This document shows positions 12,441-52,473 of a stretch of 64,000 nt of DNA, in pieces (position 1 is the first letter of the stretch; each line of letters begins with the position of its first letter). A program made the translations under genes and the position numbers. Under the pieces are notes generated by a model that saw only the letters and a program-made list of their open reading frames with translations, searched no databases and was not told the DNA's origin. The stretch lies in IMG/VR virus record IMGVR_UViG_3300033463_000092. One strand, given 5' to 3'. The DNA comes from an uncultured virus (IMG/VR IMGVR_UViG_3300033463_000092). Lineage: Duplodnaviria; Heunggongvirae; Uroviricota; Caudoviricetes.

Positions 12441-12983
12441 TTACTTCATCACAAACGTAAAGAAGGAATTATTGATAAATTTTGTCTGTTCAACAGTAAA
12501 TCCATTGAAATTTTCAAGAATCTTCTGCCAAACCTCTTCTGCAAAATCTTTCATTCCAACTTCTCTACCACGAAGTTCAAGTACAATCTTTACTTTACAA
12601 TTATCCGCAATAAACTTCTTTACATGTTCAACTTTTGTATTAAGGTCATTGTCTGCAATATTTACATGAAATTTGATTTCTTTCATTTTCTGCTGAAATG
12701 CTTTTTGTCTCTTTTCTTGATCCTTTTTAGCTTTCTTTTGTTCATACAGAAATTTTTGCATATCAACAAGCTTGACGATTTCGAGATTTTCAGAAGGCCT
12801 TGCATTGACAACAAGAATGTCTTTTTCATAATTATCAGCAAGATCATTCATTGCACTGTACGAATGTCTTACATCACCCGAATTCTGAAAGTCTCCAACA
12901 ATTTGAAACTTTTCATTTCCAAATTCTTTGAAAGTAAAATCTTTTTCAATGTAACCATTTCCAGACTTGAAGAAAATCTTCAT
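12441..12983 (-). CDS. infC: Translation initiation factor IF-3
   Basis: KEIKFHVNIADNDLNTKVEHVKKFI...KVKIVLELRGRE matches the IF3 C-domain; basic linker present. Confidence 0.9.
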   Translation of the reverse strand: MKIFFKSGNGYIEKDFTFKEFGNEKFQIVGDFQNSGDVRHSYSAMNDLADNYEKDILVVNARPSENLEIVKLVDMQKFLYEQKKAKKDQEKRQKAFQQKMKEIKFHVNIADNDLNTKVEHVKKFIADNCKVKIVLELRGREVGMKDFAEEVWQKILENFNGFTVEQTKFINNSFFTFVMK

Positions 12984-13070
12984 ACTAAATAATTTGTTCC
13001 TTTTCTTTTTAAGTTAATGTTTTTCATATTTGTAATATAACATCTTATTTTCACCTGTAAACTTCTAAAG

Positions 13071-13412
13071 AAAAAAAAAATCCAGGTGTTGAATTAACCT
13101 GGATTTTGGAAAAATGTTTGGCAATAATCATTCATTTTAATTAGTTCTCCTCGATTAAAATGATATATGTATTACGTTAAATTGATCTCCTATTAGGCAC
13201 CTAACATCCGCTTCTACTGGCGAAATCTCTCGAGATGTTTTCCTTTATCCGGGAAACCGTAACCAAATACGGCTGGCGTTCGAATTATTGCGCATTTATG
13301 AAACTACCGAGAACTATCCAAAGATAAAGCAACTTAACATAAATATTTTACGCTAACACAAATTTAAAATACCAAACATTTTTCAAATCAACTGCAGATA
13401 TTTCCATCCGCT
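13071..13412 (-). ncRNA. Putative ~300-nt structured RNA
   Basis: TATAAATA at 13415..13422, hairpin plus boxA-like leader, 12-bp terminal stem AAAAATGTTTGG/CCAAACATTTTT, intrinsic terminator. Confidence 0.55.
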
Positions 13413-13426
13413 TATATTTATAATAA

Positions 13427-13738
13427 TTACTTCCTCTTCTTTTTACAACCGAAATAAGAATTAAATTCATCTTTAGTCAAAGGAGAGATTTCGTCTGAAA
13501 AAATATCAAGAACAGGGGTGCGGTTCTTTTTATCAAGCCTTTCACTGCGAATATACTCAGACTTATACCATTTCTTATCATCGCCAAGAATAAGCTTAAC
13601 GAGCCTATCATTTACAGTAATCACTCCAAGCAAAGTATAAGGAACCTTCTTTTTCGCTTTCTGAGCTTCTTCTCGCTTTTTCATTTCCTGCATTTCAGAA
13701 AAAGTCATTGGTACATTTTGATCGGATGTCATACCCAT
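13427..13738 (-). CDS. Hypothetical protein
   Basis: Promoter and AAGGAG. Confidence 0.7.
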   Translation of the reverse strand: MGMTSDQNVPMTFSEMQEMKKREEAQKAKKKVPYTLLGVITVNDRLVKLILGDDKKWYKSEYIRSERLDKKNRTPVLDIFSDEISPLTKDEFNSYFGCKKKRK

Positions 13739-13828
13739 TTTTTAAGTCTCCTTTTTTATTTTAAATTTAACATCATTTAATATAATGTAAACTTCACTTC
13801 CGACTATTTTACTATAATAGAAGTAAAC

Positions 13829-14539
13829 TTATGTCCAAAGATATAAACGAACTTCTATAGCAAGGTGCAAATAAAATTGAATTTGTTCTCTAATCAATTT
13901 ATCTAGATTAGATTTTGCATTTTTTATTATATCTTCTTTTAAAAGATCTTCTTTCTTCTCAATATATTTCAACACAATGTTCCAATTGATCTTATCATTA
14001 ATCTGTTCTAAAGTAACATTAATTGGATCTCTAACAATTTTAAAAATAGAATCATCACCTGACCCACTAATATGTTCTAAATGAGCTCTATAAATATATT
14101 CATTCCAAATTGTTAAAAGATAATCCCTATCATTTTCCATTTCCGGTAAATCTTTTGTATAAAATTTGTAGATTTCTTTAATGATATCCATGATGTATTT
14201 TCCTTTTAATCTTGGAATTAACACATCTTCATCATGATCTCCATATTTTAATCCATCATCATCTTTTAAATTTTTATCAGGGTACCATTTAATATGTTCT
14301 TCAGGTTTGTCTTTTTCTATATATTCTTTTATTAACTCAAAAATAGCAAACTTCATTCTATCTGATACATCTGAATATTCATATGGTTTAAACATTGGCA
14401 ATTTAATTTTATTATAATTATGAAATAAAATGTTCTTTAAACAATATCCTGGATAAATCCAATCATCAAAAAAGTTTTGAATCTTCCACCATACTTTTTC
14501 AATTAATTTCGGTTCTTCGTTTTCAAAAAGAGATTTCAT
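13829..14539 (-). CDS. Hypothetical protein
   Basis: 236-aa ORF with SD. Confidence 0.75.
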   Translation of the reverse strand: MKSLFENEEPKLIEKVWWKIQNFFDDWIYPGYCLKNILFHNYNKIKLPMFKPYEYSDVSDRMKFAIFELIKEYIEKDKPEEHIKWYPDKNLKDDDGLKYGDHDEDVLIPRLKGKYIMDIIKEIYKFYTKDLPEMENDRDYLLTIWNEYIYRAHLEHISGSGDDSIFKIVRDPINVTLEQINDKINWNIVLKYIEKKEDLLKEDIIKNAKSNLDKLIREQIQFYLHLAIEVRLYLWT

Positions 14540-14616
14540 TCTTTAAATTCCTTATATTAAAATAAAAAAGGGAGGATTTCCTCCCTTCTAGATTATCTAG
14601 TTTCTCTTGTTTTTCT

Positions 14617-14952
14617 TTACTGCTTCTTTTTAATAGTTTTACCGACCTGCATCTTGTCCACCATCCAGACCTTTCCAGAAGCTTTCTTTTCTGCATGAAT
14701 ATCCTTCACAACACTTCCATTGAAAATAACCTGAATGTTGTCTTTCATATTCTTCTCATCAGCATAATGATTCTTAATGAATTTCCACACCTGGCACATG
14801 TTTTTTATAGTGCATTCAGTTGAATCATTTTCATGAGAAACCTTAACGGTTAGATTCTTTACAGAAGTATTCTTGGTCTTCTTCACCTGCTCAATAATCG
14901 CTTTAGAAACTCCGCCATTAGTATTTTCCTTCATAGTCTCAACTTTATTCAT
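14617..14952 (-). CDS. Lys-rich hypothetical protein
   Basis: AGGAG SD before MNKVET; followed by terminator. Confidence 0.7.
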   Translation of the reverse strand: MNKVETMKENTNGGVSKAIIEQVKKTKNTSVKNLTVKVSHENDSTECTIKNMCQVWKFIKNHYADEKNMKDNIQVIFNGSVVKDIHAEKKASGKVWMVDKMQVGKTIKKKQ

Positions 14953-15039
14953 TTTTCTCTCCTGTTTTGTTTGTTTTGTTTTCCGATATTTCAAATATAA
15001 CTCATTCTTTCAAAAAGTAAACTATTAATTTGAATTTTT

Positions 15040-15462
15040 TCAAATATTTAATTCATCCTTTGAAAAAGGAACAAACTTCTTTTTCATTTTTTCAATAACT
15101 TCAGGTGGAACTCCGTGAATGTTTTCAAAATTTCCATTACAAGTAATTACTTCTATTTCAGCTCCGTTCTTTTTTGCCATTTTAATATAAGGTCTTCTTT
15201 CGGAAGGAGTTAAATTGGTATTTGAAACAATAGTATTTTTTTCTCTAGCAAGATCGAAGTTCACTTTAAGTTGACACCATTCATGAGCTTGTCTAAGCTT
15301 AAAAGGATCCCATTTATATTCTTTAGTTTTATTATCAATGAAGAATTGATCAGCTTCCCAAATATTTGCAAACTTAAAATTGGGATGATCTTCGCGATAT
15401 TTCTTTGCAGCGGTACTTTTTCCAGATCCAGGTATTCCAATGAACATTACAAGTTTTGCCAT
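15040..15462 (-). CDS. P-loop kinase, polynucleotide kinase-like (AAA_33-like)
   Basis: GIPGSGKST, EADQFF, IVSNTN, NIHGVP. Confidence 0.85.
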   Translation of the reverse strand: MAKLVMFIGIPGSGKSTAAKKYREDHPNFKFANIWEADQFFIDNKTKEYKWDPFKLRQAHEWCQLKVNFDLAREKNTIVSNTNLTPSERRPYIKMAKKNGAEIEVITCNGNFENIHGVPPEVIEKMKKKFVPFSKDELNI

Positions 15463-15465
15463 ATT

Positions 15466-15729
15466 TCAATTCCTTTCATTTAAAGATTTAAGGCTAATTA
15501 CACCCATACCAGAACACTCATGACAATCATGAACATCAAAAAATGTTTGATATCCGGTTCCTTCACATTCAGGACAAATAATATGTTCCTCCCCACAATT
15601 TTCACATTTATAAATCTGAATTTTAATATTCAAACCTAATTCAGATTTTGAATCAATAAATTTAAAAGTAGGTTTACAATCAGCTCCACATTTCTGACAG
15701 CTAAGTTGTTTTTCAATCATTTTTTCCAT
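15466..15729 (-). CDS. Cys-rich zinc-binding protein
   Basis: Four CxxC pairs, including CxxCxGxG repeats. Confidence 0.75.
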   Translation of the reverse strand: MEKMIEKQLSCQKCGADCKPTFKFIDSKSELGLNIKIQIYKCENCGEEHIICPECEGTGYQTFFDVHDCHECSGMGVISLKSLNERN

Positions 15730-15746
15730 TTCAATTTATTTCTCCT

Positions 15747-15992
15747 TTAATTAAAAAATTTCTTCATTTTATCAAAAACTATCCATATCCCAATTAAAAC
15801 AATAACGGGCAGCCAAAAAATTGAAAATAAAATTGTTAAAGAATCAATTTTCGATTTTCTATATGACCCAAATTTTCTGTCTTCTTTAAAATTAAAAGTT
15901 TTATCAAATATGACTAAGAAAATGAATGCAAACGCAAAATATATGATCATTAATTGAATTCCAAAATGATCAAAAAACTCTACCATTTTCAA
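15747..15992 (-). CDS. Small membrane protein
   Basis: Two hydrophobic segments. Confidence 0.6.
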   Translation of the reverse strand: MKMVEFFDHFGIQLMIIYFAFAFIFLVIFDKTFNFKEDRKFGSYRKSKIDSLTILFSIFWLPVIVLIGIWIVFDKMKKFFN

Positions 15993-16360
15993 TTCTCCTT
16001 AACCAAGTTGAATTCTTCAAAAAGAGGAATAATTTTGATGCCACGTTTCTTTGCAATGGATGCACAGGTTTTACATGGATGAATTGGAAGATAATTTCCT
16101 TGGCCACCTACACGAAGAATATAAATCGTATCAATTCTATTTCCATACAAATGAATCAAATCCTGTTCGGCATGAAGGCCAGCTCCTTTTCGATGAGACA
16201 TAAAATTGCGATGATTATTATATCTAATATCAATAAAATTACCTTTTTTAGTAAAAGCCACAGCCGCAATCCTATATACAAGTCCTCGTTCTTGCAAACA
16301 TTTGTTTCTCATCCTCGGAATAATTTCATACTTCAGTTTCTTCGAGCCAATCTGCGACAT
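15989..16360 (-). CDS. Zn-dependent cytidine/nucleotide deaminase-fold protein
   Basis: HAE and PCxxC motifs. Confidence 0.8.
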   Translation of the reverse strand: MSQIGSKKLKYEIIPRMRNKCLQERGLVYRIAAVAFTKKGNFIDIRYNNHRNFMSHRKGAGLHAEQDLIHLYGNRIDTIYILRVGGQGNYLPIHPCKTCASIAKKRGIKIIPLFEEFNLVKEN

Positions 16361-16457
16361 AAATATTTAAGTTCCTTTTGATTATTAAAAATCTTTTCTT
16401 TTTTAATTATAACATCTTTTTGAAATAAATAAACTTAATACTAAAGAATTTTTTGAA

Positions 16458-16739
16458 ATGTTAAATAAATTTAATTCAATTATTTCAGAAACATTTGATC
16501 TTAGTCCAAAATATATTGACAAAGATTTTCAATGTTCATTTAATAATGTTGATCTTTTCACTTCAAAAATTTTCTTCAAAGGAATAAACAATGAGTCATT
16601 CATTGGTCAAGAATTTTTAAAAGAACTGTTGAATAAAATAAATCTAAAATCAATAAATAAAGAAACTCCAATAATAATTTATTTGACAAAATTAAACTCT
16701 GTTTATTCTGGAATAATTTTTTCAACACCTCGGAAATAG
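16458..16739 (+). CDS. Hypothetical protein (isolated + strand ORF)
   Basis: 93-aa ORF with TAAATA upstream. Confidence 0.45.
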   Translation: MLNKFNSIISETFDLSPKYIDKDFQCSFNNVDLFTSKIFFKGINNESFIGQEFLKELLNKINLKSINKETPIIIYLTKLNSVYSGIIFSTPRK

Positions 16740-16870
16740 GTATAATTTAATTTTGACAAATTCATGGAAATCAGACCATATTCCTCATTTAGAAATAACT
16801 GGTCAAAAAAGAATTATTTTATAAAATAAAAGGCTCCTTCTACAGGAGCCAATTATGTTTAAAATTTGTT

Positions 16871-17362
16871 TTACTTATTCTCAGAAAGATTTTCCACACC
16901 AGTATCAGTTAGATACCATCTAGAACCAACCTTCTCATTCCAAGCAGATATTGCCTTCTCAACAAGATTGGGATCATCAACAAGAAAAGTTTCCATAACC
17001 TGAACAGTTTCAGTAATTAGATTTAGAACAAATTCACCACGATTGAATCTCTCCATCTGACGAGGAGTCGGACGATGACCCTTAGTAGTCTCATAGAAAA
17101 TCCTTCGCCATTCCTTATGTTCAGGATTGTAAACAATCTCAACTTCATTCATAATATCTTCAGCACCAATTTTCCAACGTTCATCACATTCATCAAATGC
17201 AACTAGAATTGCGGTTTCAGGATCCTTGACAAACTTTCTATTATAATTACGATAAATCCCCGTAGTAACCATATCACCGATAGTTCCAGTTTTAACCTCA
17301 ATATCCATTACACCAATAAAATGCCGATTCTTTAGATCACGAGTTGGAGTAGTCTTAGCCAT
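16871..17362 (-). CDS. Hypothetical protein
   Basis: Promoter, SD and terminator. Confidence 0.8.
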   Translation of the reverse strand: MAKTTPTRDLKNRHFIGVMDIEVKTGTIGDMVTTGIYRNYNRKFVKDPETAILVAFDECDERWKIGAEDIMNEVEIVYNPEHKEWRRIFYETTKGHRPTPRQMERFNRGEFVLNLITETVQVMETFLVDDPNLVEKAISAWNEKVGSRWYLTDTGVENLSENK

Positions 17363-17440
17363 TTTGTTTTTCCTTTTCTTTTATTATTTTAAAATTGATT
17401 TTTGTTTTAATTATAACAGCCAATCTTTCAAAGTAAACTA

Positions 17441-17809
17441 TTACTTAAGATTTAAACGGAAATCTTCAGGAATTTCTTCTTCATTCCCTTCAGGATTATG
17501 ATCAAGTTCGCCGTTCAAATCAGCTTCATACCAAAATTTTCTAAAAGGTTTTTTCAGGCCCTTCGGATCAACCTTAGGAAAAGTAACGTGATCAGCGAGA
17601 AAATCCAAACTACCATCAATAGCATCTTCTTTAGTATCATATCTAAAATCTCCACTAGTTTTTGAATTTGTTCCATCAAAAAATCTGATCTTAAAAGAAT
17701 AAGATGGATTATCTGAATTAATGTTTTTACCTAAAATAGAAATTAAAATAGGATTTTCCTTTCCTAAATAGAAAGATCTCACAACTTCGATTTTCGTTTC
17801 ATCTGACAT
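17441..17809 (-). CDS. Hypothetical protein
   Basis: Promoter and SD. Confidence 0.7.
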   Translation of the reverse strand: MSDETKIEVVRSFYLGKENPILISILGKNINSDNPSYSFKIRFFDGTNSKTSGDFRYDTKEDAIDGSLDFLADHVTFPKVDPKGLKKPFRKFWYEADLNGELDHNPEGNEEEIPEDFRLNLK

Positions 17810-17863
17810 TTTAATTCCCTTATAATTTTTCTTTGAATAATTATTAAATTATAACAGAATTTT

Positions 17864-18304
17864 TCACTTAGTAAACTGCTCTTGAACTTCTTCAGATAAA
17901 TTTTCAAATAAATTTATAATTAAAAAATAATGAAAGTCTGCATAAAATTTCACTGAAATATCTTCAACAAGTTGTTCATCTTTTACATTCTTAAGTAACA
18001 CTTTACCTATTATCAATTCCATTTTTCCATTTACTTTAGTATGGTGTATACATCTTGAGTCATATGCAATCAATTCAATCTCTTTATAATTTTCTTTAAG
18101 CCAAGCACTTAATACATCTTTTACTGATTTTTCTGAAAGTTCAATTTCAATTGCTAATTTTTGTTGAACATCCAAATAATTTTGATTTGACGGAAGTTTA
18201 TATCCATTTTCATTTCGTGATCTATTTAATACATAAAGATTATATTTATTGTATAAACCTTGAAGTTCACGTGTTAAACGTTTTTCTGTAATTGTATCAA
18301 CCAT
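17864..18304 (-). CDS. Hypothetical protein
   Basis: Operon member; 3' end overlaps the next promoter -35. Confidence 0.7.
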   Translation of the reverse strand: MVDTITEKRLTRELQGLYNKYNLYVLNRSRNENGYKLPSNQNYLDVQQKLAIEIELSEKSVKDVLSAWLKENYKEIELIAYDSRCIHHTKVNGKMELIIGKVLLKNVKDEQLVEDISVKFYADFHYFLIINLFENLSEEVQEQFTK

Positions 18305-18514
18305 TTTTAATACTCACTAATCTTTATTCAAAATATAAAATAAAAAAATAACAATTAATAAAAAAACTGAAAAAATTATTGGAGAAAAAATTAAAAGCCA
18401 TGAAATGTTTTGAAAATAATTAAAAAATAATTTGCAAATGCTAATTATTATTAAAATTATCCAAAATGAAAGAAATCCTAAAAAATTAAAAAATATTTTT
18501 ATTTTTTCCATGTT

Positions 18515-19054
18515 TCAATTTTTTCTTAAAAATTTTAAAATGTTATTTGAAATTTTTTCAGTCAAACCAAACTCCATTGATGTTTTAAAAAACTTTAGTT
18601 TAATATCTAAGTATTCTTTCATCATTGGATCTGCATCTTTATCATCATCAATAATTATGGCTTTACTTATACTATATAAATTGTTATGATCATCTAACCA
18701 ATTTAAAATTTCATTGTATCTTAATCCATTACTTAATGTTGGTGTATATCCTAAAAAACTTTCTTTAGGTAAACCAACATTATAAAATAAAGCTTCAATG
18801 AATGGTTTTGAGTTTCTACCTGCAGTATGCCTCCATGAAGAGGACCAAACAATTTTACATTCTTCAATTTTATTGATCTGTTCAAAAAGATTATGAAATC
18901 TTTCCATAAGTTCTGGAACTATGAAATACATATTTTGAATACAATACTTCTTTCTGAATTCATTTACTGAATTAGATCCATGTTCTTCTTTCCATTTCTT
19001 AACAAATGAAGAACAATTTAAAACTCCATCCATGTCTAAAAATATAATGAACAT
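18515..19054 (-). CDS. HAD-family phosphatase (RNA-repair-associated HAD type)
   Basis: FLDMDGVLN, IVWSSSWR, IIIDDD. Confidence 0.85.
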   Translation of the reverse strand: MFIIFLDMDGVLNCSSFVKKWKEEHGSNSVNEFRKKYCIQNMYFIVPELMERFHNLFEQINKIEECKIVWSSSWRHTAGRNSKPFIEALFYNVGLPKESFLGYTPTLSNGLRYNEILNWLDDHNNLYSISKAIIIDDDKDADPMMKEYLDIKLKFFKTSMEFGLTEKISNNILKFLRKN

Positions 19055-19518
19055 TAATTTATCTCTTTCAAATTAGAGGAAATATGAGCTTCTTCCTCTT
19101 CATGCTGTTCTTCTTCATTTTTATTATTCATTTCTGCAATTTTTCTACCAACTTCTTCAACAATAGCATTTCGTCTCCTTTCAGCGAGTTGATTTGAATA
19201 ACGATCTTCAAAAGAAATGGGGTCATTTGAAAGAATATATTTAAGCTTTTCTGGATCATTCGTAATAGTAGGAGTCTTATTCTTCTTACCTCTTCCTTTT
19301 GGCAAATCAACAACTTGTCCAGAAAACATACTAAACCAATGTGTTTCAACAGTATTAGTTTTAGAATTAGTAAAAGTGACTTGGCCAATTCCTAAATCAG
19401 GATCAACTTTTTCTATTTTACCGATATAAACATCAAAATCAATAATTGAACGAACTTTTACTTTAACAAATGCTTGATGCATTAAATCAAATACAATAGG
19501 TTGAGAATTTATATCCAT
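19054..19518 (-). CDS. Hypothetical protein
   Basis: TAATG overlap with the HAD gene. Confidence 0.7.
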   Translation of the reverse strand: MDINSQPIVFDLMHQAFVKVKVRSIIDFDVYIGKIEKVDPDLGIGQVTFTNSKTNTVETHWFSMFSGQVVDLPKGRGKKNKTPTITNDPEKLKYILSNDPISFEDRYSNQLAERRRNAIVEEVGRKIAEMNNKNEEEQHEEEEAHISSNLKEIN

Positions 19519-19546
19519 TTTATTTTCCCTTTAAATTTTAATATTA

Positions 19547-21115: not shown

Positions 21116-21247
21116 TGAATAAACTCTTTATTATTACTAAAATATTTATTCAAAAATATAAACTTATTTTCAATTATTTTTAACTATAATGAAAAAAAAG
21201 TTGCAACAATTTTACTGTTGCAACTTAAGTATTTGGTAATGAAGAAT

Positions 21248-23113: not shown

Positions 23114-23187
23114 TTATTCTCTCCTTTAGTAAAATGAATTTAAGTTATTTAATTATAACTTTTTAAAAGTAAAAGTAAACTGATTTT

Positions 23188-30883: not shown

Positions 30884-30938
30884 AAATCAAATCTGAACAA
30901 TTTAAGCTCAATAACCGACCAAGTTAATATAAGCTCCA

Positions 30939-31008
30939 CCAAGAAAGTTGGATTTGAACCAACACTCTCCGTTTCTCGCGGTGTTTTCACCATTTAAACT
31001 ACCTCTTG
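30939..31008 (-). ncRNA. tRNA-like RNA with truncated anticodon arm
   Basis: CAAGAGG/TTTCTTG acceptor, D arm, canonical GTTGG-TTCAAAT-CCAAC T arm, 3-bp anticodon stem, no U33, no CCA. Confidence 0.6.
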
Positions 31009-31106
31009 AAACCATCCAGATTTAATCTGTCCATTTTCAAATCAGCTTCGGAATTTTTATTTTCCGTATATTATAGTATAACTTTCAACTTGAAAAAGTA
31101 AACTCT

Positions 31107-32412: not shown

Positions 32413-33480
32413 TTAACCTTGTAAAATTTTCAGGAAGTAGGGCTGAATAAATTTGGAAACATATTTAGAAGCTTCTTTGCGAACTCTATCAAAATTGAAT
32501 TCCATATTTTCAGAAGCTTCTTTATATACTTCTTCTTCATATTCTTTATTGAAATCATTCCACATATCTTTGAGGTAAGAACCAAGAATCATACCGAACA
32601 TTCTATCATTGAGTTTCGTGGTATCAATTTTGCTCAGAACACTCATAAGTCTGGATTCTGTAACGAATTCAATAATGATGTTGAACCATTTCATTTCCAC
32701 TTCATTCATTGGAAGAACTTCTTTAGGCTCTTTGTTTTTGGAAATACGTTCTTTGAACTTAGTGCCTTTCTTTTTAAGGATAACCCTTTGACCATTGGGT
32801 TTGAAAAGTGCTCTATTAGGTTTGATAACAATACCTTCAGCAATGTTTCCCTCGATAATCGGAAGTCCCCAAAGAATATTGCCAGCTCTATCAACAAAAT
32901 CAATTGGATAATCCATGCATTCCTCTGCAGTTCCTCTTCCAAGAATAATAGGATAAGGAAGATTTACGGCTTTACAATATTTCACCACATCATCTTGAGT
33001 AAGAATTGCATGAGTTTTTCCATCAGGAAGCCTAATGACAATATCGAAAGGAACCCATTTGTTATCAGGATGATAATCCACTCTTCCCTGGATTTTGATA
33101 GCGCCTTTTACTTTTTCCACATCAGGGTGACGATACATACCGCCACAGAGTTCTCCATAGACGGTAAGGACAAATGGAAAGGTCAATTCAGGAAAATCTT
33201 TCTGAATAAGCTCTTTCATCTTGATGAGTTTCTCTTTTGCTCTTTCTTTCATGAAACAAGCAGTAGAACCTTGAAAGTCAGAACCAGGAGCATATACTTG
33301 AGTTCTGGAACCAACAATGAAGTTTCCATTTTCATCAATAGAGCATTGGCAATTACTTCCATCAATTTTCAATTCAATGACATATTCAATGGAAGGATCA
33401 AAGAATCCCTGCTCTTTTAATTCATTGATGAATTTATTGTTATACGTATTTTCAATTTCAGAGTATTTTTTGAAAATCAT
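32413..33480 (-). CDS. RNA ligase, Rnl2 family
   Basis: FKKYSEIEN, LKIDGSN, YGELCG, PFDI, EGIVIKP, ILKKK, RLMSVLSKI. Confidence 0.9.
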   Translation of the reverse strand: MIFKKYSEIENTYNNKFINELKEQGFFDPSIEYVIELKIDGSNCQCSIDENGNFIVGSRTQVYAPGSDFQGSTACFMKERAKEKLIKMKELIQKDFPELTFPFVLTVYGELCGGMYRHPDVEKVKGAIKIQGRVDYHPDNKWVPFDIVIRLPDGKTHAILTQDDVVKYCKAVNLPYPIILGRGTAEECMDYPIDFVDRAGNILWGLPIIEGNIAEGIVIKPNRALFKPNGQRVILKKKGTKFKERISKNKEPKEVLPMNEVEMKWFNIIIEFVTESRLMSVLSKIDTTKLNDRMFGMILGSYLKDMWNDFNKEYEEEVYKEASENMEFNFDRVRKEASKYVSKFIQPYFLKILQG

Positions 33481-36163: not shown

Positions 36164-36508
36164 ATATTATATAATAAGGTAACAGTAGAAAATTTGAATT
36201 GAATTACTTCTTTATTTAATGTGTTTTAATTAATGAAGTTACACCAAGTATTGATGGAATTTTATTTTGAATTATTTTGAATTCAATTCAAAATTTGATT
36301 TGTAGCAATGAGAAAGTGATTTTGGAAATGATCAATGGTATTCTTTGATACCATGTTTTCATTTGAAAAATAAAGGATGCTGATATTAAAAATATAACAT
36401 GCAAAGTGAAAAAGTAAACTGAAAATCAAAGAAAAATCAAAAATAAATGCAAAATAAAAATCAGGATCAAGTTTACTTTTCCATTGTATATGTTAAAGAA
36501 ACTTTGTA

Positions 36509-36613
36509 CACTATGAACACTTTTCCCCGCCCCTTTGGGACAGACAGGAAAATGAACTCTCTCCTTTTCTCTGGTTGATATTAAAATATAACACGATCGA
36601 TGTGATAGTAAAC
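36509..36613 (-). repeat. Promoter-driven hairpin/G-tract element, copy 3 (at the transcription divergence point)
   Basis: Same core as copy 1. Confidence 0.9.
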
Positions 36614-40832: not shown

Positions 40833-41178
40833 ATAAACGAAAGGAACCAACCACTGATCAAAAGGTCTGCAGTTCGGTAAGGAAGACGTATTGAAGGTGG
40901 TGGTGTTTCCTGGAGTTAGAAACAAGTCTCGTTGAACCTTCAGAGTAGTACGTCCGCGGCGTCGGTAAGGTTCATGGAGCCAGGGATCATTATCGGAAGT
41001 AATGTGTTCTGGTATGCCAAATGTGGTAGAGCAGCCGAGTTTAAACTCGTTCGAGTTCGGTGCGTTGGAGGTTCGACTCCTCCTCAGAACATGGAAGTCT
41101 TCGGCCAAAGCTCCTTCCCTTCTGTGATATGGCCCTGAAATGGAAGTTCCGGTATTGGCCTATCGGAACTTCTTTTTT
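40833..41178 (+). ncRNA. Structured RNA containing a degenerate tRNA-like domain (41006..41091)
   Basis: Own promoter and terminator (41143..41178); GTTCTGG/TCAGAAC acceptor and GGAGG-TTCGACT-CCTCC T arm; non-canonical anticodon loop. Confidence 0.55.
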
Positions 41179-41221
41179 TGTTTATTTTCTCAAGAAAGAT
41201 GTTATATTATAAATAGAAGAT

Positions 41222-41301: not shown

Positions 41302-41376
41302 CGCGGGATAGAGCAGCGGTAGCTCGGCATGCTCATAACTTGCAGGTCGGTGGTTCGACTCCACCTCCCGCTACCA
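41302..41376 (+). tRNA. tRNA-Met(CAT), initiator-like
   Basis: C1.U72 mismatch, GAGC/GCTC D stem, GCATG-CT CAT AA-CTTGC, CCA. Confidence 0.9.
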
Positions 41377-41382
41377 TTTTAT

Positions 41383-43016: not shown

Positions 43017-43083
43017 GGTTTACTTTTTCAGTCAGCCTGTTATATTTTAATATACAACAACCACCAACGAAAGGAACTCCACA

Positions 43084-44016: not shown

Positions 44017-44095
44017 TTCTTGGTTTACTTTTCAGAAGATTAAGTTATAATTTAATAACCCCACAAACAAAAAACAAAAACAAGGAGAAAAAACA

Positions 44096-44476: not shown

Positions 44477-44521
44477 GCCAAATAAAGGATGGAGATGGAA
44501 CCTCCATCCTCTTCCTAAGAT

Positions 44522-44633
44522 TGGCTTCGGCCTTCAGATGGTTGAATAGGGATTGTTGTTGGCCTGAATGATTTAAGATCCGTTACCTCCTTTCAATCTT
44601 AGATCAGCTTCAACCATCTGAAGGCCGAAGCCA
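44522..44633 (+). ncRNA. 3'-UTR structured RNA motif, copy C, closed by a perfect 25-bp inverted repeat
   Basis: 44522..44546 and 44609..44633 are exact reverse complements; they enclose TAGG-GATTGTTGTTGG-CCTG and a hairpin with loop containing CCTCCTTTC. Confidence 0.65.
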
Positions 44634-44756
44634 CTTTACAAACTTTACAGTAGCTGAAACAGAAATGAAGTCAATGCAGTCTATGCGGACTTTGAATATT
44701 CAACTTTAAGTTCAAATTTTCAACTTTAAGTTCAAAACATATAAGGAGAAAATAAA

Positions 44757-45032
44757 ATGAATCCAACTGAAGTTCCTTTTTCAATCAATGAAAATTTTGA
44801 TCCTCTTAAGCAGTCACCTGAATTTCGTTACCGTCTTTTGGATCGTCTTCGTTCAGACTGCGAATACTTTTTTGGAAACGGTCATCGAAATGTCAAATAC
44901 CTTTGGGGACAAGATCCTCGTACTCACATCTCTTTGATGAGGAAGCTCTATTCTTCTTTTGATATTACTGAAAGACCTGAATGGATTGATCTTGATCTCA
45001 TTTCAGAATATGAAAATCGTTTCCTTGACTGA
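44757..45032 (+). CDS. LPD11-like domain protein
   Basis: YRLLDRLRSDCEYF...LWG...HISLMRKLY...PEWI. Confidence 0.75.
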   Translation: MNPTEVPFSINENFDPLKQSPEFRYRLLDRLRSDCEYFFGNGHRNVKYLWGQDPRTHISLMRKLYSSFDITERPEWIDLDLISEYENRFLD

Positions 45033-45095
45033 GTTTACTTTTTAGTCATTCCTGTTATATTTTAATATCACCACCAAATAAAAGGAGAATATATT

Positions 45096-45314
45096 ATGGA
45101 ATTCAGAATCAACGACTACATTTATCAGGAAATGATCAACCGTACCACGCTTCATGAAAACGGCCTTGCTGAAATTCGTGCAAAATCCGGCGAACGTATT
45201 ATTATCTACTGTGGAAAGAACATCAAAGATTTTCCTGCAAAACTTTGTCATCTGGCTTATGATTTTTTTGAGCAGATCTATGATGAGATCTTTGACGAAC
45301 TTCATCCCTATTAA
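45096..45314 (+). CDS. Hypothetical protein ending IFDELHPY
   Basis: Promoter and SD. Confidence 0.7.
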   Translation: MEFRINDYIYQEMINRTTLHENGLAEIRAKSGERIIIYCGKNIKDFPAKLCHLAYDFFEQIYDEIFDELHPY

Positions 45315-45647
45315 GTTACATTCAAAGGAGATAAAGCTATGCTTAACAAAGACACTTTGGAACCCGGTCAGCCGTTTTACTACATTTTGAATGGAATTCA
45401 GGAATGGGAAAAGTGCAATTACGAAATTGCAAAGTTCTATTGGAATCCGAGATGTGGTGATCTCTTTGATGATCGGAAAATGTTCATCACCTTTGAGGAA
45501 GCTCTCTCAAAAGTGAAAGGTCTTCAGTCGGTTCATTAAACCGCCTTATTAGAATATAACATTGACCATGAAAAAGTAAACCAAAAATCAAAGACAATTC
45601 AAAGAAAAATGCATATTTTTTCACTTGGTCAAAACATGGGCTTGGTG

Positions 45648-45745
45648 CACTTTTCCCCGCCCCTCTGGGACAGACAGGATTAAAAGGTCCTCCTTGTAAC
45701 CTCTGGTTGATATTAAAATATAACATAAATGACAAAAAAGTAAAC
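45648..45745 (-). repeat. Promoter-driven hairpin/G-tract element, copy 4
   Basis: Same core; distal end diverged. Confidence 0.88.
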
Positions 45746-45780
45746 CCGGATTACTTCGGGTTTTTCTCTTTTTCTGAGGT

Positions 45781-46179
45781 TTAGAAGGAGGGATCGCGGT
45801 ATTCGTCGCGGCAGTTGAAGGCGAGGTTGATAGGCTCTCCGTGCTTCTTCGCATCATAGTCGATCCAATTGCTGGGGAGATGAGCTCTCCACTTGCCACG
45901 GAACCACCGAACGTACCGAGTGTAGTCCTTGTGGAGGAGAGGCTGTCCGTTCTCGTCGGTGTAGCGATAGGTCTCATCTCCGTATCCCTTACCGATGTTG
46001 ACTGCAGCATAACGGGCCATGGTGAAGCCTTTGTGGTCGGGGTCCACTTCGATGATCCGCCAAGCACTGCGGTCGGTCCAGTGGAGCTCGGTAACATCCA
46101 TGCCGACTTTCGGCTCCGTGAATCCGGGATTGTTCATCATCCAGTTGGTTAGGGAGCCTGTGTCTTTCATGAGCTTCAT
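45781..46179 (-). CDS. Hypothetical protein ending YRDPSF (paralog of 46455..46823)
   Basis: GAAAGGA SD and own promoter. Confidence 0.8.
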   Translation of the reverse strand: MKLMKDTGSLTNWMMNNPGFTEPKVGMDVTELHWTDRSAWRIIEVDPDHKGFTMARYAAVNIGKGYGDETYRYTDENGQPLLHKDYTRYVRWFRGKWRAHLPSNWIDYDAKKHGEPINLAFNCRDEYRDPSF

Positions 46180-46269
46180 TAGCAATCCTTTCTTTTTGAT
46201 TGGTGGTTTGTATTATAGTATAACAGAAAACTTGAGTTTGTAAACCGAGCAAAGCTAAAAAACTTTGAT

Positions 46270-46376
46270 CGCTATGAACACTTTTCCCCGCCCCTCTGGG
46301 ACAGACAGGATTAAAAGGTCCTCCTTGTAACCTCTGGTTGATATTTTAATATAACAGAGATCAGTGCTTTGTAAAC
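46270..46376 (-). repeat. Promoter-driven hairpin/G-tract element, copy 5
   Basis: Core identical to copy 4. Confidence 0.9.
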
Positions 46377-46454
46377 TAAAGTAACGATCGGTTTACTTTT
46401 TCAGTCAGCCTGTTATATTTCAATATCACCACCAAATAAAAGGAGATCATCACC

Positions 46455-46823
46455 ATGAAAAACGCCATCACCCCCGCCTTCCTGAAGAAGCATCCCAACT
46501 TCACCGTTCCCCAGGTCGGGATGGACTTCACCGTCTCTTATGGCTCCGATTGCTACGCTTGGCGAATTGTCAAGGTAGACGAGGATTGCAAAGGCTTCTT
46601 TGCTCAGGCCTATCGGCCTATCAACAAAGCGGTTTGGCCGGTTCAGGATTGGCAGTTCGAGGACGAGAACGGCAATCCCCGCCTTTGTGGAGAACCGATT
46701 CACTGCAAATACTTTTATGGCCATTGGATCAAGGACCAAGATAGTCGGTATTTCGGAGAAGTTCGGGAACGGATCAATCCCCACTTCGGCAGCCGCTGCT
46801 ACTATCAGGACCCCTCCTTCTAA
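46455..46823 (+). CDS. Hypothetical protein ending YQDPSF
   Basis: Promoter and SD; shares PxVGMD and AWRI with 45781..46179. Confidence 0.8.
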   Translation: MKNAITPAFLKKHPNFTVPQVGMDFTVSYGSDCYAWRIVKVDEDCKGFFAQAYRPINKAVWPVQDWQFEDENGNPRLCGEPIHCKYFYGHWIKDQDSRYFGEVRERINPHFGSRCYYQDPSF

Positions 46824-46918
46824 ACCTCGGAAAAAAAGAAAAACCCGGAGCAATCCGGGTTTACTTTTCGGTCATTCCTGTTATATTTCAATACAACCAA
46901 ACGAAAGGACCACCTACC

Positions 46919-47185
46919 ATGAGAATCGTCGTCGTAAAAGAATCCTCCAATTCAGGTCGTGAAATTTTCGGTCAGTTCAAAACTATCGCCGATGCTCAAG
47001 CCTTCATCAAAGCCTCCGCCGAAGAGACCAAAGAGATGTACAAACATTCCGACCCTACCATCATGGAGTCCTGGGAACACGCCGACACGGTTCTGGAACT
47101 GTTCATCCACGATCGGTTCGAATCCACGGACCACAAGTTTTCTTGGACCATCGAAAATCTGATGAAACCTCAGTTTACTTTTTGA
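46919..47185 (+). CDS. Hypothetical protein (FGxFKT family)
   Basis: Promoter and SD; last codons FTF come from the next promoter. Confidence 0.75.
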   Translation: MRIVVVKESSNSGREIFGQFKTIADAQAFIKASAEETKEMYKHSDPTIMESWEHADTVLELFIHDRFESTDHKFSWTIENLMKPQFTF

Positions 47186-47247
47186 ATCCAGGTGTTATAT
47201 TATAATATCAAAACCACCACAACAACCAATCTGAAAGGAAACACACC

Positions 47248-47667
47248 ATGAAGAAACTCACCATCAAGTTTGCCGACACCACCACCGAAGCCCGTTCCGA
47301 AGCCAATATGTGGACCATCCTCCGCGGCTTCAGGGACAAACTCGCCACTCTCGTCGCCGATGACGAAGGTCCCGGAACCGAATGCCCCGACCACGCCCTG
47401 GTCACCGATGAGGAAGGGAACCTCTTCAAAGAGATCGTCTTCCGCCTCAACAGCCATCGCAAAATTGAAATGGTCAATCTTGTGAAGGCTACCTGCCGCA
47501 GGGCGGTCGAAAAGGCCCGGAAAGCCGCCAAGGAAGCCGCCGAAAAGTTGGCCGCCAAGAAAGCCCGTAAGGCCGAGGCCAACCGTCGGTACCGTGAACG
47601 GAAGAAGGCTGCCGCGTCCGCCGCGGCTGTAGTTCCGACCGAAGAGGCTGCTCCGACCGAAGCCTAA
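47248..47667 (+). CDS. Hypothetical protein with Ala/Lys-rich tail (family of 44096)
   Basis: 3' half nearly identical to 60769..61200. Confidence 0.8.
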   Translation: MKKLTIKFADTTTEARSEANMWTILRGFRDKLATLVADDEGPGTECPDHALVTDEEGNLFKEIVFRLNSHRKIEMVNLVKATCRRAVEKARKAAKEAAEKLAAKKARKAEANRRYRERKKAAASAAAVVPTEEAAPTEA

Positions 47668-48283
47668 TGCCCAACATCACCGAGGACCGGACTGCGGAAT
47701 CCCGGTTTACTTTCCGGGATTCTTGGTTATAATATAATATCCGCTACCACTCCAACCAACAGAAAGGAATCTTCAGCATGAAGAAGTATCGCATCGCCGC
47801 CTACGAACGGTCCTACGGCCGCACTCGGGTCTATTCCGAGATCGTGGAAGCTCCTAATCCCGCCGCCGCCCGTGCCATCTTCGAACAGCGGAATCGGAGG
47901 TCCTGGATCACCCACATCACCGAGCTCTAATCAGCTTTTCGGTAAACCGAGAAACCGGGAGGTTTCTCGGTTTACTTTTCAGTCATTCGTGTTATATTAT
48001 AATACAATCAAAATCGAAAGGACTGCACCAATGAAGCTCTTCAACGTTATCTATACTGTCGCCGATGCCAATTACCGTACCTGCATCCTGACCGTCTATG
48101 CCAAGAACGAAACCGAGGCCGAGGCTTCTGCTCGTGTTTACCTTCAGGAGGAGCTCGGAGTCCGCAAGGGTCAGCTCACCGTAGTCTCAATTCTTCCCAC
48201 GCTCTGCTGAAAAATTGGTTTACGAATCACCAATCCCAGTTATATTATAATATCAACAACCACCAACGAAAGGACCACTCACC

Positions 48284-48658
48284 ATGATCACTCTCCTCAC
48301 CTCCCTCGTTTCCGACAACATCGGCCTCTCCGACGAAGACATCCAGGTCAAATCCGTCTCGGCGGCTTGGAATCGGATCCGTGAGATCAGGGACACCACC
48401 GATCCTCAGATCCTCAACGGAGTCGAACTTCGGATCACCCAGGACGAACCCTCGGATCGGCTTCCCAACATCATTCGATTCACCCTGAATTCCAAGGGAA
48501 AGATCGAATTCAAGGATGCGGCCAAAGTGAAAAAGACCGAGGCGGAACTCACCGGCGGGACGATCACCTTCATCAACCCCGAAACGGGAAAGACCAAAGA
48601 AGTTCAGTGTGTGGATCCTTCCACCTTTCCCAAGCCCAAGGTGGCGGAAGTTCGGTAA
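48284..48658 (+). CDS. Hypothetical protein (QVKSxSAAWN subfamily)
   Basis: Paralog of 62926..63351. Confidence 0.8.
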   Translation: MITLLTSLVSDNIGLSDEDIQVKSVSAAWNRIREIRDTTDPQILNGVELRITQDEPSDRLPNIIRFTLNSKGKIEFKDAAKVKKTEAELTGGTITFINPETGKTKEVQCVDPSTFPKPKVAEVR

Positions 48659-48958
48659 CTAACTGACTCAAAGGGAGGCTAACAACCTCCCTTTCCAAAA
48701 GGTTTACATTCCTCTCTATCCTGTTATATTATAATATCGACAACAGAAAGGAACATCTCAATGAAGCACTACACCATCACTTATTCCGCGGCCTTCGCCA
48801 TCGGCAAGTTTATCCACGGTCAGTATAAGACGGATGCTTATTCCGAGTATGATGCAATCGACAATCTCGTCGGTTTTGTGTCCTGTTTCGGACTGCTCCG
48901 CAAGCTGGATATTCAGACCGTTTTCGCCCGCTAATTCAAACTGAAAGGAACATATATC

Positions 48959-49243
48959 ATGAACGAACTTCCTCCTCCCCAATACATCATCCTTATCAAG
49001 GAAGGTGACGAAGAACTTCATCCTCTTTTCATCGGCACCCGGGAAGAATGCAAGTCCATAATGTTCGATGTCGTCCGTCCTCATCCTTCCGAGCTCATCA
49101 TGAATGTCAAGGATCTTGACTCCGACTTCGGTTGGCATTACACCTACGAAAAGCTGAAAGGCGGAAAGATGGTCAAAATGGAAATTGCTTGTTACAATCT
49201 TCCCGGAAAGACCGTTGATGAAGCCGCCTCTTGTATCTATTGA
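48959..49243 (+). CDS. Hypothetical protein
   Basis: GAAAGGA SD. Confidence 0.7.
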   Translation: MNELPPPQYIILIKEGDEELHPLFIGTREECKSIMFDVVRPHPSELIMNVKDLDSDFGWHYTYEKLKGGKMVKMEIACYNLPGKTVDEAASCIY

Positions 49244-49692
49244 TCCTTTCTGTTGGAGTTGAAGAGAATGATGAATCCAACTTACAGACCAAGGCCACCG
49301 CCTTAACCGATCCAAATTAAGTCGTAGTGTTTAGAAGGAGCCGTAATGATCGAGGCTCCTTCTTTTTGTTTACTTTTTAGACTTCCGTGTTATAATTAAA
49401 TACAAGAAGAAAGGAAGATTCAATGAAATATCTTGTAGACATAATGATCTATCGTCATCAGCCAACTCATCGAGTGATAGACGCGGAAGAACTTCCTATG
49501 CTGATAATGGAAGCTAAGAAAACCTTAGGAGCAGAACTCATCGTCCACAAACAGAATCAAAAAGGGAACTTCATTCGCATCGGGTGTTTTCAAATCGGAA
49601 AGCAGCCTATCCATGTCCGTAGGGCTTATGGTCTCGGAGTGGATTATTCAGCGGACGATGTAATTTTGAATTAGGAAGAAAGGAACTTTAAT

Positions 49693-49980
49693 ATGATAGA
49701 GCAAAAAGCCACCTTGAGAGTAGGGACCAAAAGCAGGGTCACCATTCCGGAGAGATTCTTTGACTCTATTAACGAAAACGGTGGATTCGAGAAGAAAGCT
49801 TACCTCGTTCTGAAATCATCCGCAAGAAAGAGGTTCTATCAGCATCCAGTGAGGAGGGTCTCCCTGACGGAATTCAATCCCGGCGATTTTCTTGTCATCA
49901 GCTACATCCCTTCCAGAGGTGCCTTCTTTAAGGTGGAAAAGCATGTCCTTTCTGACGTTTTGGTTTACTTTTTGAATTGA
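49693..49980 (+). CDS. Hypothetical protein
   Basis: GAAAGGA SD; C-terminus overlaps the next promoter. Confidence 0.65.
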   Translation: MIEQKATLRVGTKSRVTIPERFFDSINENGGFEKKAYLVLKSSARKRFYQHPVRRVSLTEFNPGDFLVISYIPSRGAFFKVEKHVLSDVLVYFLN

Positions 49981-50050
49981 GATGTTATAATATAATATCT
50001 GAAACAATAAACGAAGTTGTGATTACTCTAATAACGAAGGAGCTTTAAAA

Positions 50051-50404
50051 ATGTACATCATTGGAAAAAAGATGAATGAACAAGCAACCTCCATGGGTTG
50101 GTTTTGTGCATGGTTGAAGGAACAATATCAAAATAACCTTGTTTTCCTTGACCATCGGAATGATGCTAAGATTAAAATGTTGAAAACTGACGATCATGGA
50201 AAAAATATCGGCTATTTTTCTGGAAAGTACGTTGAAAGTTTTCTCTACAATGAATGGATTAATTATAATCGATTCATGGTTTATTATAATGAAATTAAAG
50301 ATATTGGACCTGATGCCTTCCTAAAGATGATTCATGATGAATGGAAAAATATGATGTCCGTTGTCACCATTGAGGATGATGGATTGAGGATAAAAAAATA
50401 CTAA
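50051..50404 (+). CDS. Hypothetical protein
   Basis: Promoter and AAGGAG SD. Confidence 0.7.
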   Translation: MYIIGKKMNEQATSMGWFCAWLKEQYQNNLVFLDHRNDAKIKMLKTDDHGKNIGYFSGKYVESFLYNEWINYNRFMVYYNEIKDIGPDAFLKMIHDEWKNMMSVVTIEDDGLRIKKY

Positions 50405-51111
50405 AAGTAAAAGATAAAAAATTGTCTTTTAAAGATGTTTAAACATCATATTAGACAAAAAAATAACTTTTATTTTTAAGTTTACTTTTTGAATTGAGAT
50501 GTTATAATATAATATCTGAAACAACAAACGAAAGGAACTCTTCAACATGGCTCAGTTCACCGTAGATACTCTCGATCACAACCGTCATCAGCTCACTCGG
50601 TCTGCCAAGAGGTTCGGAAGCTTCTTGGAGGCTCAGAACTTTGCCAAGAAGCTGGCGGACATGCAAATCCTCGCCGCGGAAGTCAAAGGGAAGACTCTCA
50701 AGCTTCAGCACACCGAGAGCGGCTTCAGAGCAGGAAACATGGAATTCATCGCTGTGGAGCTCTGAACAATGAAAAGTTTCATCGTCAAAACTGAAGTAGG
50801 AGAATTGATCCTTACTCTTCGGTACTTCCCCGTTTCTGAAAAGATCAAACTTTATCTTCATGGAGTTGTGATCAATGAATCGAATCAGATCACCTTTTAT
50901 GAAGATAATGCTACTCTTTTTCTCAACCCAAACTACGAATCAGTTCTCAAAGGTGCTAAGAATCTAATCAATTATCATTTCATATGGGAGTCATCCTCTC
51001 AGGAGGAATTTGCTCAGTGGCTGTCTCATTTACTTTCAACTGAAAGTTTAGAAGGAATTTAAGTTTACATTCACAAGAATCGTGTTAAATTATAAATACG
51101 AAAAGAAACGT

Positions 51112-51377
51112 TCCATCGTAGCTCAATGGTAGAGTCACCGGCTGTAAAAACATCATTGGTGTATAGGCAGCTCCAGAAGGAAACTTTTGGATGGACAAGG
51201 CGCTAAGTCGGGGAAGCCCAATGGAATCCCGAGCTAGCAAGGATGCAAATCCTGGGCAAGTGTAGAGACTTTACACGCCTCACCTAAATCGAAAGACATG
51301 GTGAAGAGAAAGTCCAATTCAACGAAAGTTGATATGTAACCGGTTGGTTGCTGGTCCGAGTCCAGCCGATGGAGCCA
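51112..51377 (+). tRNA. tRNA-Asn(GTT) interrupted by a group I intron (exons 51112..51145 and 51337..51377)
   Basis: Splicing gives ACCGG-CT GT|T AA-CCGGT, TCCATCG/CGATGGA acceptor, G73 and CCA. Confidence 0.88.
51146..51336 (+). ncRNA. Group I intron, 191 nt, no ORF
   Basis: U|...G boundaries; P1 GCTGT/GCAGC with U.G; P3 AGGCG/CGCCT; P4 TCGGG/CCCGA; P7 GACTTT/AAAGTC; P8 TCACC/GGTGA. Confidence 0.88.
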
Positions 51378-51517
51378 TTTTTATATATGCTGGGTGTCAA
51401 GCTGCTAACTTGACTTTATTATAAATTCTATTCCTTGAATTTATAAACTAGCATTTTAATTTATAAATATAATTGTTGTTAGCAGCAACGATAAAGGTAA
51501 AATAAGGAAAAATTAAA

Positions 51518-52264
51518 ATGAAGAAGTGCAAATTTTGTAAGTCTGAATTCGATGGTTCAGGCTCTTTTTGTTCTAGTGAATGTCATGGGAAATATGCTGC
51601 ATCTTTTGTAGAAAATCATAAATGCAATTTTAAAAGAAAGTGTGCACCTTATGGAAGATGGACATGTTCAAGATGTGGAATGATATTCGAAACACGAGCA
51701 AAATTATTTGAACATACTAAAAGCCATAGATTGAATCCTAATGAAAAAAGCGCATGGAATAAAGGTTTAACTAAAGAAACCGATCCTAGAATAATGAAAG
51801 GAGCGGAGACTTTTTCAAAAAGATATAAAGAAGGTATTATCGTTCCATCATTTTTAGGAAAACATTTTACAGAGGAACAAAGAAAAAAGATTTCAGACTC
51901 AATGAAACAGGCTCATGCTGAAGGAAGAGCTCATAATATTGGACAAAGTCGTTGGAATAATGAGCCATCATATCCTGAAAAGTTTTTTATAAAAGTAATT
52001 GACAATGAGTTTGAAAATAAAAATTATCAAAGAGAGTTTCCTTTCTTTAAATATTCATTAGATTTTGCATGGGTTGAAGAGAAAAAAGTTCTTGAGATAG
52101 ATGGAGAACAACATGAAAGATTTGAGGAATACAAAGAACGTGATAAAAAGAAAGACGAACTTTTACTGAAAAATGGTTGGAAAGTATTAAGAATAAAATG
52201 GAAAGATGTAATGAATGATTCAAAGTATTGGATCAAAGTTGCAAAATCTTTCATTGATTCTTAA
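51518..52264 (+). CDS. Free-standing putative homing endonuclease (Zn fingers, NUMOD3-like repeat, DUF559/Vsr-like nuclease)
   Basis: CxxC motifs, WNKGLTKETD, GKHFTEEQRKKIS, LDFA...LEIDGEQH...RDxxKD...GWKVLRIKW; TATAAATA at 51462..51469. Confidence 0.8.
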   Translation: MKKCKFCKSEFDGSGSFCSSECHGKYAASFVENHKCNFKRKCAPYGRWTCSRCGMIFETRAKLFEHTKSHRLNPNEKSAWNKGLTKETDPRIMKGAETFSKRYKEGIIVPSFLGKHFTEEQRKKISDSMKQAHAEGRAHNIGQSRWNNEPSYPEKFFIKVIDNEFENKNYQREFPFFKYSLDFAWVEEKKVLEIDGEQHERFEEYKERDKKKDELLLKNGWKVLRIKWKDVMNDSKYWIKVAKSFIDS

Positions 52265-52309
52265 TTCTTATTTACTTTTTCATAAATGAAGTTATATTAA
52301 AAATATTAA

Positions 52310-52384
52310 CGGGGTGTGGGCCAGTCTGGTTAGGTCGCCTGCCTTGGGCGCAGGATGTCGGAAGTTCGAATCTTCTCGCCCCGA
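52310..52384 (+). tRNA. tRNA-Pro(TGG), CCA not encoded
   Basis: CCTGC-CT TGG GC-GCAGG cloverleaf. Confidence 0.92.
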
Positions 52385-52398
52385 TATTTGTTTTACAG

Positions 52399-52473
52399 TG
52401 CGGGATAGAGCAGCGGTAGCTCACGATCCTCATAAGTTCGTTGTCGGTGGTTCGACTCCATCTCCCGCTACCA
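52399..52473 (+). tRNA. tRNA-Met(CAT), initiator-like, second copy
   Basis: U1.U72 mismatch; CGATC-CT CAT AA-GTTCG; CCA. Confidence 0.9.

Follow-up and report, generated by a model that had tools for sequence, protein, structure and literature searches.

Phage-encoded initiation factor 3 (IF3) has already been reported (PMC7162821, PMC11895373), and a role in ribosome rescue or in support of phage translation has been suggested for it (PMC7824862). In bacteria, Arg25 of IF3 was reported to be invariant and to contact the elbow of the initiator tRNA, not its anticodon stem; in E. coli the variants R25A and R25A/Q33A/R66A increase initiation by a tRNA mutated in the three G-C pairs of the anticodon stem (a 3GC mutant), and loss of Arg25 also increases initiation at AUU (PMC9723500). 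On the tRNA side, formylation by Fmt is determined by a 1-72 mismatch, G2-C71, C3-G70, G4-C69 and A73 (PMC9976931), and G30 is the anticodon-stem base that the E. coli initiator cannot spare (PMC5389676). Here we analysed a window of 64,000 nucleotides from the uncultured tailed virus IMGVR_UViG_3300033463_000092, part of a large phage genome, which carries an infC gene for IF3 and two initiator-like tRNA genes with the anticodon CAT. Both tRNAs lack G30 and carry a U30·U40 mismatch, and comparison across phages suggested that IF3 and the tRNAs may be separate acquisitions, not one dedicated initiation system. The three genes are as follows.

12441..12983, minus strand: infC, translated from ATG into an IF3 of 180 amino acids with a conserved linker and C-domain and a remodelled N-domain, in which Gln27 stands for E. 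coli Arg25 and the INxxI motif is missing.
41302..41376, plus strand: initiator-type tRNA(CAU) 1, Rfam 55.6 bits; C1·U72, A11-U24, pairs 29-31/39-41 A-U, U·U, G-C.
52399..52473, plus strand: initiator-type tRNA(CAU) 2, Rfam 53.5 bits; U1·U72, A11-U24, pairs 29-31/39-41 A-U, U·U, C-G.

Direct reading confirmed the initiator marks noticed at first pass (unpaired 1:72 and A11-U24) and extended them: both genes also have G2-C71, C3-G70, G4-C69 and A73, so that all Fmt determinants are intact, and both encode CCA. The anticodon stems had been given exactly as GCATG/CTTGC for tRNA 1 and CGATC/GTTCG for tRNA 2. They share A29-U41 and U30·U40, while pairs 27-43, 28-42 and 31-39 differ by compensatory changes. 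Neither tRNA has the three G-C pairs, or the G30, of a bacterial initiator, and from their sequences we filed both as initiator-like variants, not as canonical members of the tRNA-fMet family.

A sequencing or assembly error behind U30·U40 was rejected. In run X6, from another study, the residual depth of T was 4.9 at each of positions 41330 and 41340, which is the depth of one 1,095-base contig that spans the tRNA cluster and differs from the window at 56 other letters. These depth sums suggest that the related contig keeps T at both positions, and the mismatch stands in two independent gene copies. Pseudogene decay was rejected on an alignment of 21 tRNAs (20 with U30·U40, plus that of L223, which is related to the window phage): in every row the four remaining anticodon-stem pairs are formed, and they covary, with double-sided changes in 6, 9, 10 and 4 rows, A11-U24 is present in 21/21 and 1:72 is unpaired in 16/21.

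The first-pass annotation had pointed to the lack of the three G-C pairs in these tRNAs. The lack is real in both, but it does not set them apart. Among the matches listed in a scan of viral contigs, we collected 121 CAT genes with a D-arm of the window type, and their stems vary widely, with GC/GC/GC in 32, AU/GC/GC in 47 and UA/GC/GC in 17. Absence of at least one of the three pairs (89/121) is thus ordinary, since only 32 listed viral initiators keep all three and the annotated initiator of phage T5 does not. G30 was kept in 119 of the 121, and the rare feature of the window tRNAs is the loss of this base, not the lack of three G-C pairs.

A scan for viral initiators without G30 gave at least 120 loci, and the 30-40 pair of the 119 that were listed and scored was C-G in 86, U·U in 24 (21 distinct), U·G in 3, A·C, U-A and U·C in 2 each, and A-U in none. 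G30-less initiator-type tRNAs therefore recur in phages, mainly as C30-G40 or U30·U40, and A30-U40 never appeared among the listed loci. The flipped C30-G40 pair (L298-L417) is the commonest of these states, yet a mutant with C-G in the middle fails to sustain E. coli. When tRNAs were compared outside the anticodon arm, the nearest neighbour was a G-C or C-G gene for 15 of the 32 distinct U·U genes (L353, a doubtful tRNA, included), which hints, weakly for such short sequences, at several origins.

U30·U40 as a host-type trait was rejected: in 185,579 bacterial and archaeal species genomes the exact pattern occurred at 5 loci, 4 of them in phage-like contigs of clostridial bins. At the fifth (L184, 1897-2054), a 2.7 kb contig carries a U30·U40 initiator-type gene and, in tandem, a canonical gene with all three G-C pairs; the contig belongs to a 0.7 Mb genome bin with infC in the usual infC-rpmI-rplT order, and this is the only candidate cellular case. 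Searches of the open-licence literature turned up no description of U30·U40 initiators in phages or of IF3-tRNA pairing; further phage initiators or IF3s may be listed in the supplements to PMC10264068 and PMC7162821. Such U30·U40 and other non-G30 initiators offer natural test cases for how the P site reads its tRNA and for how phages may survive cleavage of host tRNA-fMet.

The IF3 gene also proved real. The protein matches Pfam IF3_C at 63.6 bits (cut-off 34.8) and IF3_N at 24.5 bits, slightly below the cut-off of 26.9, and it matches solved IF3s by sequence. Its AlphaFold model (mean predicted local distance difference test score 90.6, with a predicted beta-hairpin at the N-terminus) aligned with Thermus thermophilus IF3 (5lmn, chain 5lmn_X) over 159 columns, with a template modelling score of 0.72 and E 4e-11, N-domain and helical linker being present. 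A search with this IF3 matched 47 phage records at E <= 0.01, and an Atlas search returned viral IF3 clusters only. At the position of Arg25, Gln was found in 35 of the 36 sequences of the clade of the window IF3, against Lys or Arg in 18/20 sequences of its sister group and Arg in 119/152 other IF3s; Tyr75, Asp106, Lys110 and Arg133 are retained in 36/36. Gln27 lowers the claim of normal proofreading and leaves that of IF3 homology unaffected. Judged from sequence, the change could relax initiator checking, and a phage IF3 of this kind is a natural counterpart of a laboratory fidelity mutant. Translation of the window infC begins at ATG, that of E. coli infC at an Ile codon; an ATG start would remove autoregulation of infC. 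Our search of the open-licence literature found no functional tests of phage IF3.

If the tRNAs depended on the phage IF3, as had been proposed, the two should occur together across phages. The co-occurrence failed both ways. IF3_C was found in 0/14 and 0/24 viral records with U·U initiators, that is in 0/32 distinct records, some of which are copies of one phage and 9 of which are at least 90% complete; the same search recovered 5/5 known phage IF3s as a positive control. Direct comparison of query P0001 with the 9 near-complete records gave 0/9, in this case with no positive control. Other non-G30 records (25 of the 49 searched, from 50 of the 120 loci) also had no IF3_C, and IF3 was found in 1/50 records with G30 (50 of the 121 loci). 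Phages with complete records can thus carry a U·U initiator and no IF3. Conversely, G30-C40 was kept in 10/10 IF3-bearing phages with a detected initiator-type tRNA, namely G015, G017/W11, G087, GAP32, CBB, Yen9-04, Kaldavass, XbC2, LR756500 and L223, five of which form one jumbo-phage group. This count leaves out the fragments G016 and G018-G024 as well as BF, XaC1, RaK2 and A4, in which no initiator was detected, a weak negative because the pattern also missed the Yen9-04 initiator, seen in the flank only. Furthermore, 28 and 39 kb separate infC from the two tRNA genes, which are on the opposite strand, and hence it is not physically linked to them. These results left an obligate IF3-tRNA system, and a requirement of such tRNAs for a phage IF3, unsupported; what stands of the private-initiation proposal is a real IF3, initiator-type tRNAs and the Gln in 35/36 clade sequences.

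The neighbours of infC are of another kind. An RNA ligase adjoins it or lies near it in the window and in the relatives L220, L222 and L223, the last of which shares with the window phage an IF3 (47% identity), an Rnl2 (57%) and the promoter repeat described below. The window codes for two RNA ligases, Rnl1 and Rnl2, a kinase and phosphatases, the following among them, and an Ile tRNA adjoins infC.

10431..11657, minus strand: T4 Rnl1-type RNA ligase, Pfam PF09511 63.9 bits, second open reading frame downstream of infC.
32413..33480, minus strand: T4 Rnl2-type RNA ligase; in L222 and L223 its orthologue is the gene immediately upstream of infC.
15040..15462, minus strand: P-loop kinase, polynucleotide-kinase-like (AAA_33, phrog_505), with a possible role in RNA end healing.
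18515..19054, minus strand: HAD_SAK_2 phosphatase of RNA repair proteins, Pfam PF18143 77.8 bits.
12227..12302, minus strand: tRNA-Ile(UAU), directly downstream of infC with its own promoter repeat, position kept in L220.

By linkage, IF3 travels with the RNA ligases and not with the tRNAs, which agrees with the proposed role in rescuing ribosomes or aiding phage translation. Taken together, we favour the reading that IF3 and the two tRNAs are separately acquired parts of a large-phage kit which sustains translation under host attack, and we put its probability at about one half. To judge from their identity elements, host MetRS would charge both tRNAs and host Fmt would formylate them, and formylation would restrict both to the P site. 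The anticodon stems, recoded away from that of the host in two ways around the shared U30·U40, may let them escape nucleases that recognise the anticodon stem-loop of tRNA-fMet. By analogy with 3GC mutants, they would act as weak initiators, used by host ribosomes when the host's own tRNA-fMet has been cleaved or runs low: lowering host tRNA-fMet alone permits initiation by a 3GC mutant in E. coli (PMC3017606), and PMC6393288 further supports their use when the native initiator is low. With co-occurrence absent, no special IF3 should be needed for this use. The phage IF3 would supply or replace host IF3 and so maintain the pool of free 30S subunits and of recycled ribosomes, and its altered N-domain may incidentally ease the use of U30·U40 tRNAs. 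As in the window, two differently recoded non-G30 initiators occur together in the records G033 and L185, which is expected if stems diversify under attack.

Several points weigh against this reading. The anticodon loop is unchanged in both window tRNAs, and enteric VapC cuts in the anticodon loop (PMC7180214); no passage on stem pairs that VapC requires was found in the open-licence literature, and its dependence on the stem is putative. In E. coli, mutants without G30 are toxic (PMC5389676), most phages reportedly do not encode a tRNA-fMet where VapC-LT2 is active (PMC10264068), and PMC12482277 found no support for evasion in Sf14. A canonical initiator could lie elsewhere on the 105,915-base contig. 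The change from Arg25 to Gln fits a rival in which IF3 and tRNAs are paired, U30·U40 also occurs in elongators, and the excess of U·U among initiators depends on clustering, as shown below. Initiation by these tRNAs and nuclease evasion by a recoded stem are both suggestions drawn from sequence.

The mismatch might instead be tolerated, near-neutral and without any anti-defence role, the tRNAs merely enlarging the initiator pool. As a control we took 245 distinct non-initiator tRNAs from the phage loci in hand, a sample drawn partly from U·U carriers, in which the 30-40 pair was G-C in 140, C-G in 76, G·U in 8, U-A in 6, U·U in 5, A-U in 5, U·G in 4 and A·C in 1. All five U·U pairs, that of T5 tRNA-Asn included, stand on C31-G39. 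This makes the mismatch a general motif of phage tRNAs, one that may be no more than tolerated. The window tRNA-Ile(UAU) likewise has U29·U41 where L220 has U-A, and viral initiator stems vary in many ways. Against tolerance, G30 is retained in nearly all of the 121 listed viral initiators; U·U, two changes away from G-C, outnumbers the one-step mismatches, with 24 loci against 2 with A·C and 2 with U·C among the 119 listed; and three flanking pairs changed between the window copies while U·U was kept. The ratio of U·U to A-U plus U-A was 21 distinct to 2 in the listed non-G30 initiators and 5 to 11 in the elongators (Fisher p 0.0003 at 90% and 0.001 at 85% clustering), and the excess was no longer significant once the tRNAs were clustered at 80% (5 vs 2, Fisher p 0.17). 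TruA-type enzymes convert U40 to pseudouridine, which could stabilise a U·U pair. We regard a merely tolerated mismatch as unlikely.

A private pair, restricted to a ruminant-gut clade, would bring the proposal of the first-pass annotation back in a narrower form: an IF3 with Arg25 changed to Gln would replace host IF3 on the 30S subunit without its proofreading and admit U30·U40 initiators that host nucleases cannot read, giving a nuclease-proof route of initiation. The near-fixed Gln of the clade, the behaviour of the R25A variants and the U30·U40 in both window tRNAs are consistent with it, as is the sister group, which has Lys or Arg and whose one known initiator, that of L223, has G30-C40. 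This is, however, one contrast inside the relatives (Gln with U·U in the window, Lys with G30-C40 in L223), and the match of R25Q with U·U concerns one lineage only. The co-occurrence counts and the distance between infC and the tRNAs speak against a pair, as do the four intact residues in 36/36 clade IF3s and the contact of Arg25 with the elbow. Start sites are ordinary as well, with ATG after a Shine-Dalgarno site in 54 of the 56 scored genes behind the promoter repeat. We consider the pair quite improbable; if true, it would be a natural low-proofreading IF3 matched with G30-less initiators. As a general private initiation system the proposal is not supported, and IF3 and the tRNAs look like separate tools against host defences.

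Very doubtful is the idea that the tRNAs are decoy or jamming RNAs, which would be formylated but unable to complete initiation and so occupy 30S subunits or absorb toxins that recognise the acceptor stem. The toxic G30-less mutants of E. coli do stall ahead of an elongation-competent 70S (PMC5389676), but jamming would stop the phage's own ATG genes, a decoy for anticodon nucleases should retain a host-like stem, and the stems of these tRNAs remain otherwise fully paired. That the genes are elongator tRNA-Met, or tRNA-Ile2 after lysidine modification, as their CAT anticodon would allow, can be nearly dismissed, given that all Fmt determinants and A11-U24 are present, that AUA is already served by tRNA-Ile(UAU), and that L012, G034 and G006 have separate elongator-type CAT tRNAs beside their U·U initiators.

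The rest of the window is consistent with a large phage. It contains many short open reading frames without known function, genes for an NAD-dependent DNA ligase, PolX and a MoxR-type ATPase besides the RNA ligases and end-healing enzymes, and 11 tRNA genes by ARAGORN, the two CAT genes among them. AUA, read by tRNA-Ile(UAU), is a minor Ile codon (41/462 Ile codons in 18 open reading frames). A tRNA-like gene at 41005-41092 (plus strand; long variable arm, irregular anticodon loop, Rfam 30.4 bits) is possibly a degenerate tRNA-Leu(UAA) and is followed by a terminator-like hairpin at 41142-41173; the ARAGORN Ser(AGA) call at 30938-31009 (minus strand) is doubtful, its anticodon arm being short and a long variable arm missing. 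The sequencing runs that contain this DNA are of ruminant gut, and two other bovine studies carry about half of the sampled words. Searches with the IF3, the DNA ligase and the promoter repeat found no close relatives among viral contigs. The promoter repeat is of the sigma-70 type (TTTACT-16-TATATT/TATAAT, often with TG), with at least 70 copies in the window by pattern. Nearly every gene has one, and the copies diverge from a point near 36,500, a layout typical of an early region. The start-codon count given above led us to reject unusual start codons in the phage genes. Three matches concern the main genes.

13034..13061, minus strand: sigma-70-type match upstream of infC, TTTACA-16-TATATT with TG, a consensus match only.
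41181..41208, plus strand: repeat variant before the Asp-fMet-Gly tRNA cluster, TTTATT-16-TATATT, read from the sequence and under the scan threshold.
52271..52298, plus strand: repeat before the Pro-fMet tRNA pair.

Six copies of a non-coding unit of 65-80 bases were also found, each beginning immediately 3' of a promoter repeat.

7155-7235, 8059-8132, 36499-36579, 45631-45711, 46262-46342 and 59680-59760, all minus strand: the six copies.

A further copy lies in L220 (about 15520-15600). Each has a pair of neighbouring hairpins and a 3' tail that is conserved, some contain an AAGGAG stretch, and double-sided changes occur at 7/19 predicted pairs across the 7 sequences. The unit had no match in Rfam at the gathering score, a search with one copy gave chance-level matches only, and we regard it as a candidate multicopy phage small RNA.

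Compared with known systems, the window IF3 is closest in setting to the IF3s of RaK2/GAP32/BF-type jumbo and huge phages (PHROG 9787; PMC7824862, PMC7162821, PMC11895373), which are likewise stand-alone infC genes of large phages with tRNAs and RNA repair genes. It forms a separate clade, with matches 25-41% identical, and has Gln where those IF3s retain Arg25 and an N-x-x-I motif beside initiators with G30-C40. The tRNA-fMet of phage T5 (NC_005859, T5t14) resembles the window tRNAs in U1·U72, in the encoded CCA and in lacking two of the three G-C pairs, but it keeps the middle one, G30-C40, and T5 has no IF3_C. The 3GC mutants of E. coli and the mycoplasma and rhizobial variants are also formylatable with altered 29-31/39-41 pairs, and their use depends on competition with native tRNA-fMet (PMC5389676, PMC3017606); unlike the window tRNAs, the natural variants named in these passages keep G30-C40, and the mutant lists given there include no U·U. 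Finally, nuclease-evading phage tRNAs (PMC10264068) differ from those of the host in the anticodon arm, as the window tRNAs do, but the changes scored in that passage lie in the loop, whereas the window tRNAs have an unaltered loop and a recoded stem.

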